A stretch of 64,000 bases of DNA from Octopus vulgaris. Taxonomy: Eukaryota. The translations under genes and the position numbers were made by a program. The notes below the pieces were generated by a model. That model searched no databases. It saw only the letters and a program-made list of their open reading frames with translations, and was not told where the DNA came from. The stretch lies in assembly GCA_951406725.2 (NCBI GenBank), contig OX597819.1:66278001-66342000 (forward strand), written 5' to 3'. This document shows, in pieces, positions 2,771-61,500 of the stretch. The first letter of the stretch is position 1. Every line of letters starts with the position of its first letter.

Positions 2771-3035
2771 TATTATTGTGTTGGGGGAGAGTCATTCTCT
2801 TTTGGTGCCTTATTGATTTAACACACTCACCAGTCTAATTTCCACTCAATGACTATTGAAAGGGTTACAAGTCACAACGAAAATTTTTGTAAAATATAAG
2901 TAAATGAGTGGAAATAAGACTGGTGAGTATTAAATTAGTGGGGTCCTAGAGGAGGATGACTCTCCCCACACATAATAAAATATGCTTCAACGCATGAATT
3001 CCCATAAAGAATCCTACAAACCACATACAAGAACG
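2771..3035. repeat. Diverged fold-back element with unique tail
   Basis: Imperfect inverted arms about 2771-2856 and 2897-2977 (ggggagagtcat/atgactctcccc; ctcaccagtct/agactggtgag). Unique tail 2978-3035, then (TA)n. Confidence 0.7.
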
Positions 3036-3311
3036 ATATATATATATATATATTAACATCACAAAAATTTAGAAACTTCAAGAATGTGAAATAGATTGTT
3101 TTTTAGGAATGATAGGTCTTGGAGCAAATAAGGTTATAATTAATAATATGCAAATACCTTTTATATAGAAAAGTCAACTGTTTCTATCTAAATGGTTTTT
3201 AACTCAATGTTAACATACTTTTACTTGTGGACTTATTTACTTCAGGAGTCACCATTTTAAAAAGGATATATATATATATATATATATATATATATATATA
3301 TATATATATAT

Positions 3312-3584
3312 ATAAAGGAAATGAAGAAAATGCTGAAAAAATAATTTAAGAGATAGTGTTCCTTTCTGATAGATTTTTTCCTCTTAAGAGGAAAAAATCT
3401 ATCAGAAAAGAACTCTATCTCTCTTGAAAAAATATTTTTTGATAAGTATAACAAATGCGCAACCGGTAAAAAGAACTTTCACCTAATTAAATACACTCTC
3501 CCTTACTTAAATTATTTTGTCAGCATTTTCTTCATTTCCTTTTTTTATATATCACAACTCGTGTTCCACATCTCCTATTTTAAA
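3312..3584. repeat. Fold-back element with zero-spacer palindrome and tail, inside (TA)n
   Basis: Palindrome about 3349-3422 centred on TTAA. Outer arms about 3312-3350 and 3506-3545. Tail about 3553-3584. Confidence 0.8.
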
Positions 3585-3627
3585 TATATATATATATATA
3601 TGTATATATATATATATATATATATAT

Positions 3628-4030
3628 GGAGTGGCTGTGTGGTAAGTAGCTTGCTAACCAACCACATTGCTCCAGATTCAGTCCCACTGCGTGGCATTTT
3701 GGGCAAGTGTCTTCTGCTATAGCCCAGGGCCGATCAATGCCTTGTGAGTGGATTTGGTAGATGGAAACTGAAAGAAGCCTGTCGTATATATGTATATATA
3801 TATGTGTGTGCGTATGTGTTTGTGTGTCTGTGTTTGTCCCCCTAGCATTGCTTGACAACCGATGCTGGTGTGTTTACGTCCCCATCACTTAGCGGTTCGG
3901 CAAAAGAGACTGATAGAATAAGTACTGGGCTTAGAAAGAATAAGTCCCGGGGTCGATTTACTCGACTAAAGGCGGTGCTCCAGCATGGCCACAGTCAAAT
4001 GACTGAAACAAGTAAAAGAGTAAAAGAGTA
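3628..4030 (+). mobile_element. tRNA-derived SINE (family A), near full length, with LINE-like 3' tail
   Basis: Pol III A/B-box-like head (gtggctgtgtggtaag...gattcagtccc), internal microsatellite, tail ggcggtgctccagcatggccacagtcaaatgactgaaacaag(taaaagag)2. Many copies in the window. Confidence 0.9.
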
Positions 4031-4698
4031 AATATATATTGTTATATTTCGGAATGGTCATCTTGCCAGTTTAGCCAATAAAAACACCCGCACTATATAT
4101 TTGGTGTTATTTTGCTTCAGTGATATTTATTTTTTACATTAATCTTAATCTTATTTCGGCCAAAGTTCTTTCGTCACACTCCTGTGACCGCATCAGTGGT
4201 CCTTTGTTTTCTTCTCACTTACTTGTGTCTCTCCTTACTAACCGTCAGCCATTTTGTATTTCTATTGTATGTCTTCATTTGCGCATGCTTATATCTCTAT
4301 GTGCGTCTATGTTTATTTAGTGTGTGTATGAGGGGGATGCCTGTAATATTTGTATCTTCTGGTTATATACATTCTTGTAATTTGTATTTTGTTTTTGTTG
4401 TTGTTGCTTTTGTTCTAATTTTGTTCATGTGTTTACATCCACCCATTATTATCATTACATATGCTTGTATGTATGTATAACAACAATATTAGTAATAATA
4501 ATAATAAATCTAATTGAAAAAAAAAAAAAATATATATATATATATATATATATATATATATATATATATATATATATATATACATATATATATATATACA
4601 TATATACACACACATATACACATATACATATATATAGTTATTCATTTCTATTTCTTTGATTATTTGTGTATTTATTATGTTTGCAGGATCCACTATCG

Positions 4699-58597: not shown

Positions 58598-59439
58598 GGG
58601 AAGTGGAGGTAATGCTAATATTTATGATGGTTAGGGGTAATGGTGTTGATAGCGATAATGGTAGTTCTTGCTGGTAATTTACATGATGCTAATAAAGAAA
58701 TGAGAGCAATGGCGATTATAAAGAGTCTTATGCTACAGTCGTACTAGGAGGACTGGGTTGTGGTTGTAGATACGTTTTTCTTTTTGGTGTTTTATTTCCA
58801 ATCTCACGTCTTTGATCGAAAGACAGTAATTGAACCATCTCTGCTGAGCGTGGGATGTTTTCCAGACGAAAACACTTACCACTTCTCCTCTCATGGATGG
58901 GCCAGTAGGAAAGACAAGTTCTCAGCATCCATGGAACTGCAGAGACTGACAGATATTCGTTTCACTGTAACCGTACACATATAAGCATCCATGAAGCCAC
59001 AGAAGGTGACATATTGGTTAAAAACAACTGCACGTATCTAAGGGTCCTACCCTCTGGGCTTTCTATAGGGGCTTACTCCCTTAAATTTCTTTGAAAACCA
59101 CAATTAATTCCTCCACAACGCAAAATAAGGCTTCATTATCATATTAGGCATGGAAGACCACAAGTAGTCTTACACACATCTTTCAAATTTCTGTTTGTCT
59201 CCGGCAACGAGTGACACGAGGCAGAGTAGCCATCAAGATGCTGGATTTGTATGGAGCTATCTTCTGGCAGATGAGCACCTACAAAGCTGAATCTTCTCTG
59301 AATCGGAAGGATCGTCTATATACGAGTGACCGTCTTTTGGACGGTCCCTCTAGCATCCATGAAATGTTAATTAACACAGTGCTGCTGCTTCGAGTCAGAG
59401 TAGACCTTGTGGGCAATAAAGAAATAGGTATTACATCTG

Positions 59440-59760
59440 AATTTACGTTCTGAATTCAAATTCCGCCGAGGTCGACTTTGCCTTTTATCCTTTCGTTGTC
59501 GATAAATTAATTACCAGTTGCGTACTGGAGTCAATCTAATCGACTGGTCCCCTCCCTAAATATTTCAGGCCTTGTGCCTAGAGTAGAAAAGAATATATTT
59601 GTAATATGTCGTCTGTCTTAAAGTTCTGTGTTCAAATTCCGCCGAAGTCGACTTTGCCTTTTATCCTTTCGGGGTCGATAAATTAAGTACCAGTTGCGTA
59701 CTGGAGTCGATGTAATCGACTCAAATATTTCGGGCCTTGTGCATAGAGTGGAAAAATATA
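59440..59760 (+). mobile_element. Two tandem 5'-truncated SINE family B copies
   Basis: ttcaaattccgccga.gtcgactttgccttttatcctttcg occurs at about 59455 and 59631. Confidence 0.85.
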
Positions 59761-60177
59761 TCTGTAATGTGATAATATCGTGAGGACAGTTATAGGAAAG
59801 CAGTTGCAGAGACAATAGTAGAATTGCAGTTGTAGTTGTGTAGTGACAGTAGTAGATGCAACAGAGACAATATTCCCGGTAGCGCTTGTTGAGTTGACGC
59901 TAATAAATTTGGTGGGGCAGGTGATTGGGGTGATTCTGAGAGTTGTGGTGTTGGCAGTCATAGTATGATGTTTGTGGCAGATGTTGTGTTGGTGATGATT
60001 GTGGCTACAATAAAGTTTGTAATAGTAGTAGAACTGATGGTTATGGTTACGTTGCTAATCATTGTATAATCGAGGTAATGATTGGAAGGATGTTAAGTTA
60101 TTTTGATGGTGATGACCATCATGGTATGATTGCCTGTAGTGGTGGTCATGGTGGTAATATTAATGGTGGTAATATTA

Positions 60178-60392
60178 AGAGCGGCGAGCTGGCAGAATCG
60201 TTAGCAAGCCAGGAGAAATTCTCTGCTGATACATTCTTAGTTCAAATTCCACCGAGGTTGACTTTGCCTTTCATCCTTTCGGGGTCGATTAAATAAGTAC
60301 CAGTTATGCACTGGGGTCGATGTATTCGACTTAATCCCTTTGTCTGTCCTTATTTGTCCCCTCTATGTTTAGCTCCCTGTGGGCAATAAAAA
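60178..60392 (+). mobile_element. SINE family B with an alternative 3' end
   Basis: gcggcgagctggcagaatcgttagc...cctttcggggtcgat...tttagctccctgtgggcaataaa. The same 3' end is at about 46790-46872 (-). Confidence 0.85.
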
Positions 60393-61150
60393 AATAAATA
60401 TTAAGGAGGATAAAGGCTAGTTAATTTCTTCTACCCTAGACTTACTTTACCTGATATATAAAAGGAGATTTGGCTGTTATTTCTAGTAAGTCAAGCGGTC
60501 ACGTAGAGGTTCTTGTATTCTCTCAATGTGTTCGCGTCATCTCATTATACACATCCACTCGGAATATGTTGACTATTTGCCAGTTAAAGATATCCATATA
60601 ATGGCCAGTAATGGACTTTTCGATAGAAGAAGAGAATTAGAGATAGACTTCAAAAGATGCCTAGAAATTTAGTACTTAGTTTTGATCCTTTACATCACGG
60701 TTTCGACTCAAGCCCGAGGACAGTTTGGTTTGTGATGTCCCTTCGATCAATGAAACAATGTCGTTGTTTAACTCCTGGCCACATCTCAACGAAACAGATA
60801 TATGATGAAAGGTATTTTCATGATCAAAGGTTTTTCCATGTAATTTAAGGGAAGTAAAATACCATATTATGTTACTTCTTTGTTTCTTAATATTTTTCTC
60901 CTTCTTTAAGTCAGAGGTGTGCGATTTAAGGGACAGTTGGCTGCTGTTTCTTGTTATTTCTATATCCACAGAAACGTAACCAAGTGTTCGAACCTGCAGT
61001 AATTTTTGTCAATATGATTTTTGTCCAGTACATACTAGTTGTGCATTCTAGAGCCTTGTCATGAAACTTTGCGAAATGAATATATATATATATATATATA
61101 TATATATATATATATATATATATATATATATATATATATATATATATATA

Positions 61151-61500
61151 TATATAATTAGGGTTCAGCAACGATTAACTTCACCACACACCGAAGTTTA
61201 GAAATAGCAGTCAAAATCTTAGCTATTCCTTCTACTTTAAAGGGAGTTCCCAGAAAAACCAAAGCTCTTGAAAACAAAGAACTTTGCTTTGGTTTTTCTG
61301 GGAACTCCCTTTAAAGTAGAAGGAATAGCTAAGATTTTGACTGCTATTTCTAAACTTCGGTGTGTGGTGAAGCTAATCGTTGCTGAACCTTAATTATATA
61401 GTATTACTTAAACTTACCATAAAATGGTCTTTTTCATGTCGAATCCTACTTGGTGAAATTATTAATTATTTCTTAATTAATTAATTTCACCCTTTGTTAT
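61151..61500. repeat. Fold-back element: 115 bp arms, 20 bp spacer, tail of about 100 nt, inside (TA)n
   Basis: 61151-61265 vs 61286-61400 near-perfect inverted. Tail 61401-61500. Long (TA)n on both sides. Confidence 0.95.

Follow-up and report, generated by a model that had tools for sequence, protein, structure and literature searches.

Penelope-like elements (PLEs) that carry an endonuclease (EN+) are described, in passages of PMC8557442 and PMC3846280, as forming complex insertions in which a 5'-truncated copy lies next to an inverted truncated copy, often with a 30-40 bp tail at one end. How such inverted, tailed insertions arise is treated as an open question in PMC11167929 and in passages of PMC8557442. 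For PAc, the Poseidon element of Anolis (Frangieh et al. 2024, PMC11167929), in vitro work has shown that both target strands are cleaved and extended and that reverse transcription begins at two start sites, and a dimer was predicted. Non-LTR (long terminal repeat) retrozymes are presented as non-autonomous PLE derivatives in passages of bioRxiv 10.64898/2026.07.22.740005, and passages of an octopus repeat annotation (PMC13282606) list recently active Penelope-like families without describing the structure considered here. This report concerns a 64,000-nucleotide stretch of Octopus vulgaris (assembly GCA_951406725.2, contig OX597819.1, positions 66,278,001 to 66,342,000, forward strand; "the window"), which contains six inverted, one-tailed insertions. 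Judged by their sequences, these are truncated copies of PLEs, one of them derived from an element that lacks an open reading frame (ORF), and their tailless end (end A) and tailed end (end B) occur together almost without exception.

Throughout, families F1-F6 correspond to loci 1-6, F7 to a seventh locus, and L-numbers to individual genomic loci. Like the EN+ PLE insertions described in passages of PMC8557442 and PMC3846280, the octopus insertions show head-to-head inverted pseudo-LTR ends, a one-sided tail, partial tandems and (TA)n targets, together with, in some families, a predicted hammerhead in the pseudo-LTR and, in F1 and F3, an ORF start within pseudo-LTR plus tail. Unlike them, they have tails of 32 to ~147 nt, most copies are stubs of 0.25-0.7 kb, the pairing of ends has been counted, and the target-site duplication is unreadable inside (TA)n. 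A sequence-only reading of the window had proposed a candidate double-priming integration system; the architecture itself, however, has already been described for PLEs in those passages, and the system is accordingly not a new one. What is added here is the counted A/B rule, the longer tails, and the finding that a retrozyme-like unit and PLEs of at least three lineages have the layout in common. A literature search, with most subscription papers and supplements outside its scope, found no count of A/B pairing, no proposal of twin priming for PLEs, no tails up to ~147 nt and no such layout in a retrozyme-like unit.

Inverted one-tailed loci and their families

Self-comparison of the window recovered all six inverted repeats where the sequence-only reading had placed them, with the layout of microsatellite, arm, spacer, inverted arm and one-sided tail. 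Each lies between (TA)n or (TG)n tracts, and in each a unique tail extends one arm only. The tails measure ~57-58 nt (locus 1), 32 nt (locus 2), 57 nt (locus 3), 69 nt (locus 4), 78 nt (locus 5; F5 range 66-78, the boundary being ambiguous within a TA-like run) and 100 nt (locus 6; ~96 in F6), in agreement with the earlier values of about 58, 32, 57, 69, 78 and 100 nt. In locus 1, the inverted tailless arm (2773-2854, minus strand) follows (TG)n/(TA) and is 85-91% identical to natural F1 copies (L063, L072, L084), and the tailed copy (2847-3035, plus strand; tail ~2979-3035) contains the N-terminus of a degenerate ORF from an ATG at 2956; the surroundings of this locus, insertion included, are duplicated on another contig (L061, L062; 91% over 1.2 kb). 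Locus 2 consists of an inverted tailless arm carrying an internal deletion (3312-3386, minus) and a tailed copy (3385-3584, plus; tail 3553-3584) representing the terminus of a PLE that has a CxxxxCxxC linker and a CCHH endonuclease (L114, L116).

Locus 3 is far longer and retains coding sequence. Its tailless, longer copy (4036-6355, minus) comprises a truncated, frameshifted ORF for reverse transcriptase (RT) and endonuclease (EN), a 3' untranslated region (UTR) and a pseudo-LTR, and includes an unpaired spacer (5983-6355), whereas its tailed copy (6360-8357, plus; tail 8301-8357) contains an RT-thumb-GIY-YIG frame (6358-7644), an ATG at 8275 and a hammerhead-like motif with a variant core (8134-8178). 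The arms are 99.2% identical. In locus 4 the tail sits on the left: the tailed, shorter copy (13481-16133, minus), which bears Hydra-clade motifs, has its tail at 13481-13549 and a hammerhead at 13567-13617, and the tailless, longer copy (16143-19851, plus) contains an endonuclease C-terminus (16143-16400), a long microsatellite-rich 3' UTR and a type I hammerhead (19784-19834). Two loci had been credited with PLE coding sequence, and this stands for locus 3, where RT and GIY-YIG frames are present in both arms, but in locus 4 the coding sequence is confined to the unpaired middle, which is part of the tailless right copy. An older F6-related remnant of arm plus tail lies inside the F4 3' UTR (16800-17012, plus; z 5.4 to the locus 6 end).

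Loci 5 and 6 are short, each with an inverted tailless arm (42758-42902 and 61151-61279, both minus) followed by a tailed copy (42897-43097 with its tail at ~43020-43097, and 61285-61500 with its tail at 61401-61500, both plus), that of locus 6 belonging to a tandem unit of ~595 nt that has a type I hammerhead but no ORF. A seventh locus, missed by the sequence-only reading, comprises a 66-nt inverted tailless arm following (TA)n (62324-62389, minus) and a 5'-truncated Hydra-type RT/EN ORF (62390-64000, plus) that runs past the window; as read in L115, it ends at ~65470 (window-equivalent) with a tail of ~147 nt and then (TA)n. Between its RT and EN lies an asparagine/serine-rich stretch reminiscent of the N-rich inserts that passages of PMC3846280 describe in rotifer Penelope elements.

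Searches of the octopus genome itself (2.8 Gb in 227 contigs) with arm plus tail returned 859, 1270, 182, 1261, 1764 and 2817 first-look candidates for loci 1-6, and for each family search 40 candidates were scored and 25-30 loci retrieved each time; given such dispersed families, the inverted repeats are no chance occurrence. To judge from motifs and tblastn matches, an RT ORF with a C-terminal GIY-YIG endonuclease is linked to the ends of F1, F2, F3 and F4, and the endonuclease only to those of F5. These five families are thus tied to RT/GIY-YIG coding sequence of PLEs that represent at least three lineages, one being of the Hydra clade by its motifs. Pfam returned no family for the truncated PLE frames of loci 3 and 7. 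In F1, a PLE ORF was found at most 1.5 kb upstream in 5 of 23 loci (4 on the same strand), versus 0 of 82 loci of three other families. The loci had been called largely sequence-unrelated, but loci 1 and 3 align locally with a z of 13.4 and the ends of both families encode the same short N-terminal peptide, so that F1 and F3 are relatives. A protein search with the F3 N-terminal peptide gave, among the best 150 of 21,436 candidates, many stubs stopping at residue 29-31 and no long intact frame. F1, F2 and F3 share a CX2-5CxxC linker and a CCHH endonuclease, the features of Neptune and Nematis, two clades treated here together; F2 may be Neptune-like and F1 and F3 Nematis-like.

In F4, the tail runs on to an ATG in tandem copies (L122, L391, L392), as expected of a pseudo-LTR. 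Its motifs point to the Hydra clade: as in the Hydra-clade PLEs of passages of PMC8557442, it has RWR for RWK, DKT, a CxCX5C linker without CCHH, CxxC and CxH around E and N, a hammerhead and a (TA)n target. Its unit, however, is ~5.3 kb rather than <3 kb because of the microsatellite-rich 3' UTR, and its assignment is by motifs; F5 and F7 probably belong with it by similarity. F4 copies are ~99.6% identical and full-length tandem units exist, the former indicating recent activity. Three F4 units were seen head-to-tail ~5.3 kb apart (L391-L393, L422, L122), with RT and EN in different frames in the unit read. Among 30 upstream-seeded F5 loci, 5 have a Hydra-type endonuclease ~2 kb upstream (E 3e-12 to 7e-3), and the F5 3' UTR contains an internal duplication with a period of ~850 nt (L190, L192, L202, L203). 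Of 30 F3 loci, 5 show an in-frame continuation of the tail, all of them in one array with a degenerate ORF; F3 copies whose tail enters the degenerate ORF are clustered on one contig (L152-L154, L156, L160). No such continuation from tail to ORF in tandem copies was seen for F1, F2 or F5.

F6 differs in kind. Its tail joins back to the start of an ORF-less unit of ~592-600 nt with a type I hammerhead, and no linked PLE ORF was found in 30 upstream-seeded loci (one unrelated hit lay 1.3 kb off) or in 29 tail-seeded loci, suggesting a retrozyme-like unit rather than a truncated autonomous PLE. It resembles the non-LTR retrozymes of passages of bioRxiv 10.64898/2026.07.22.740005 in its ORF-less tandem unit, its type I hammerhead and the position of some ends at the cut site, but the F6 loci seen contain truncated, inverted, tailed pairs of no more than ~1.2 units instead of long arrays, and none of the loci examined was shown to have two complete hammerheads in tandem. 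The hammerhead pattern with stems was found in F4, F5 (1 of 2 copies) and F6, and the same pattern search did not detect it in F1, F2, F3 (a variant core was seen by eye) or F7. In an Rfam scan of the window, a hammerhead did not appear among the matches listed (150 of 435), which were dominated by microsatellite-like miRNA models, and folding of the tails gave no structure common to them.

Pairing of the two ends and the origin of the inverted copies

End pairing was counted in F4, F2 and F6 by arm-only queries, which are blind to the tail. The F4 sample of 40 hits gave 13 inverted pairs, with 10 unpaired hits left out, 3 belonging to a tandem array and 1 to the window; the partner could be typed in 15 of 29 distinct F2 loci and in 12 of 25 distinct F6 loci, L328 being counted by its outer end. 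Altogether, 39 of 40 inverted pairs were A/B, one was B/B and none was A/A (binomial p 7e-11 against 0.5), with 13/13 A/B in F4, 14/15 in F2 (the remaining pair being the B/B) and 12/12 in F6. Two of the 40 are loci of the window, and without them the count is 37/38. Among 30 F4 ends, 15 were A, 13 were B and 2 were tandem read-throughs; ends A and B are thus about equally frequent, so that independent choice would yield about half A/B, and the near-strict pairing indicates that the two ends of one insertion are coupled. This one-A, one-B rule is a sharp constraint that can be tested in vitro, and F4 is young and has a simple (TA)n target.

Copy lengths were compared in a pooled set of 107 rows, comprising 101 A/B and 6 B/B pairs; the set is mostly tail-seeded, and such loci cannot reveal A/A, and it includes a few duplicates, segmental copies or rows with nested insertions. 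The A/B rows divide into 35 with a longer tailed copy, 31 with a longer tailless copy and 35 in which the two agree within 25 nt, 18 of the last falling at a single hot spot in F2. The 13 tail-blind F4 pairs are similarly divided (tailed longer 6, tailless longer 5, equal 1, uncertain 1), and 11 of them are asymmetric by ~90 nt to several kb, on both sides. The lengths of the two F4 copies show no detectable correlation (rho 0.21, p 0.46, n=14). At the F2 hot spot, ~184-205 nt from the tailed end (window ~3380-3400), both copies stop and a quasi-hairpin and an A-run are present; a hammerhead sought as an explanation of this junction hot spot ~200 nt from B was not found. In F4, a T-rich tract ~273-309 nt away from the tailed end (window ~19540-19640) is a frequent stopping point for copies of either type and possibly an RT stall site.

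Of 93 junctions examined in F2, F3, F5 and F6, 41 lack extra bases, and 25 of these 41 overlap by at least 2 nt, compared with a random expectation of 20%; F4 junctions in unique sequence are near-blunt. These junctions fit end-joining with optional microhomology, which passages of PMC2837659 report for L1 twin priming, and do not separate the models discussed below. Both arms of a locus share subfamily variants (73 shared minor alleles in F6) and therefore come from one source sequence; a two-template test gave no case of two clear source haplotypes at a locus, save three F3 segmental duplicates of one old insertion. In F6, 8 of 62 copies stop at or very close to the position where the hammerhead is predicted to cut (281-287 nt from B), suggesting that some templates may be self-cleaved sense RNA. 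Ends A and B both bear short TA-like letters that might pair with a (TA)n primer.

Given the observed family identity, two fixed ends, variable junctions, A/B pairing, greater length of either copy and single source sequence, the best reading, and in our judgement a probable one, is that both ends of the target prime reverse transcription at two fixed sites of the RNA. In a single event, the two 3' ends of a cut (TA)n target would act as primers, one at the outer site B and the other at the inner site A; the two cDNAs would then be joined where each had stopped, presumably by end-joining, and the tail would be the stretch of RNA between A and B. The product would be head-to-head, 5'-truncated, pseudo-LTR-ended copies of a PLE, or of an ORF-less hammerhead derivative, in (TA)n, and coupling of the two primings in one insertion might come about, for example, through a dimer bound to a single RNA. 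Independent lengths of the two cDNAs would give the mix of tailed-longer and tailless-longer pairs. The idea of two start sites fits both the 39/40 pairing and the in vitro data on PAc (PMC11167929), with which the octopus families share AT-rich targets and would share two fixed start sites bounding the tail, cutting and extension of both target strands and a dimer like the one predicted; the octopus families come from other clades than PAc, and the main text of PMC11167929 does not trace the inverted pair to double priming. The sequence-only reading had also invoked double priming, but with one start at the RNA 3' end and one internal; since the pseudo-LTR runs on into the ORF in tandem copies, both sites are probably internal to the RNA. 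The L1 twin or dual priming described in passages of PMC2837659 is similar in that both target ends prime, as proposed here, and in its inverted junction with little or no microhomology; in L1, however, the internal site varies and the pieces do not overlap, whereas here the second site is fixed near the first and the RNA region is present twice. A bolder extension, which we regard as tentative and somewhat short of an even chance, is that two-ended integration is obligatory in several PLE clades and in the retrozyme-like elements that parasitise them. A dimeric RT acting on a single RNA would be forced to start from site B at one target end and from site A at the opposite end. The inverted one-tailed unit would then be the normal product and would explain some ~100,000 hairpins of the octopus genome that look like miniature inverted-repeat transposable elements (MITEs).

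Several points weigh against priming at both target ends. Six of the 107 pooled rows are B/B; 35 of the 101 A/B pairs end within 25 nt of each other, several being perfect palindromes, as a fold-back of the cDNA predicts; 52 of the 93 junctions have inserted or unassigned bases, and palindromic centres and the F2 hot spot inflate the overlap count; and two clearly different source haplotypes were seen at no locus. Deletions near the centre occur (L090 and the left arm of locus 2), and mouse palindromes quickly acquire asymmetric central deletions, according to passages of PMC8701086, which could mimic the finding that either copy may be the longer. The in vitro study found no strand difference in start site, and PMC11167929 therefore does not itself explain the pairing. 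Double priming is deduced from finished insertions, and no intermediate was seen.

The strongest competitor, which we nevertheless consider unlikely, is that a cDNA started at B folds back and copies itself, that the endonuclease cuts at the TA-like A, and that later asymmetric central deletions leave the spacer on either arm. It accounts equally well for the A/B pairing and for identical arm haplotypes, and the many near-equal arms and perfect palindromes, the position of the F2 hot spot on a quasi-hairpin and the central deletions visible in L090 and locus 2 all speak for it, as do passages of PMC8557442, in which Craig et al. ascribe the tail to EN-mediated resolution, and the palindrome instability documented in mice in passages of PMC8701086. 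However, fold-back of a B-started cDNA puts the unpaired part on the tailed copy and so does not directly give loci 3 and 4, where the unpaired sequence belongs to the tailless copy. F4 is very young, yet 11 of its 13 tail-blind pairs are strongly asymmetric on either side, so that fold-back needs near-universal, fast and large deletions; A-type and B-type sites are both RT starts in vitro (PMC11167929). For these two reasons fold-back is ranked second. In F6 L236 and L329, moreover, one copy stops at the hammerhead cut site and its partner reads through, a weak argument that chance could explain. For rotifer Penelope elements, passages of PMC3846280 argue that the inverted copy arises by self-priming on an antisense transcript. 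This would produce head-to-head orientation and palindromic junctions, but it predicts a spacer always on one copy type, whereas both occur about equally, and the F6 copies that end at the sense-strand hammerhead cut site (8/62) point to a sense template; we regard it as improbable. Two independent insertions into one microsatellite, or later recombination, are more doubtful still: families do re-insert into (TA)n tracts within earlier copies (L422), and over the 1.5 kb examined some A and some B ends stand alone, but this origin, which expects random A/B choice, tail-to-tail pairs, microsatellite at the junction and differing arm haplotypes, none of which is the rule, is largely refuted by the 39/40 A/B pairs.

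Short hairpins and their abundance

Each family is dispersed in the genome; its outer ends are fixed at A or B and are mostly followed by a microsatellite, and arm and spacer lengths differ from locus to locus. MITEs, by comparison, have a fixed length and symmetric terminal inverted repeats, whereas the lengths here range over 0.2-8 kb and the ends are asymmetric; the loci are not MITEs because their outer ends are fixed but their arm lengths vary. The proposal that the small hairpins are heavily truncated PLE insertions and not DNA transposons is upheld for F1, F2, F4 and F5, which link to RT/EN, and needs amendment for locus 6, which is an ORF-less hammerhead unit. The smallest hairpins are tied directly to a PLE by a tailed F4 hairpin of 186 nt (L422, reverse strand ~2990-3177) that has inserted into a (TA)n tract within a full-length F4 unit. 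The site of this hairpin is empty in other F4 copies, with intact flanks and the (TA)n tract on both sides. The hairpins are short, high-copy and non-coding, as MITE-type DNA transposons targeting microsatellites would be, but this identity has almost no probability left and is refuted for the six families, in which arm lengths and junctions differ at nearly every locus, the ends are asymmetric, identical ends occur on PLE ORFs and hammerhead motifs, and a tailed hairpin lies inside a full-length F4 unit.

Abundance was gauged in four 200-kb blocks chosen without regard to content, the counts being rough, since locus 3 escaped the de novo scan and locus 5 was scored wrongly. The scan yielded 188 inverted-repeat groups, of which 62 compact non-SINE ones were kept after removal of SINE-like (short interspersed nuclear element), short and widely spaced inverted repeats. 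Among these, 28 have one end flush with a microsatellite and a tail of 25-250 nt opposite, 3 are flush at both ends, 5 are flush with another distance and 26 are flush at neither end; on visual inspection about 9 of the 28 tailed cases look like window families, and a few are probably spurious. In the sampled blocks such an element recurs about every 30-40 kb, which extrapolates very approximately to 70,000-100,000 elements genome-wide. For annotation, this means that such elements could be mislabelled as MITEs or left unclassified.

Neighbouring sequences

A 5S rRNA gene-like sequence lies at 9874-9992 on the plus strand (Rfam 82.9 bits, above the gathering score). Fragments of long interspersed nuclear element (LINE) reverse transcriptase occur at 10525-12081 (Pfam RVT_1 match), 322-1536 and 22009-22599. 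A further inverted repeat at 33154-33898, with 143-nt arms that are 76% alike, is not flush with microsatellites. Copies of a SINE, which we take to be an octopus SINE, are abundant beside (TA)n tracts (from 3631 onward, at 8437-8549 and from 19890 onward) and form many unrelated inverted pairs.

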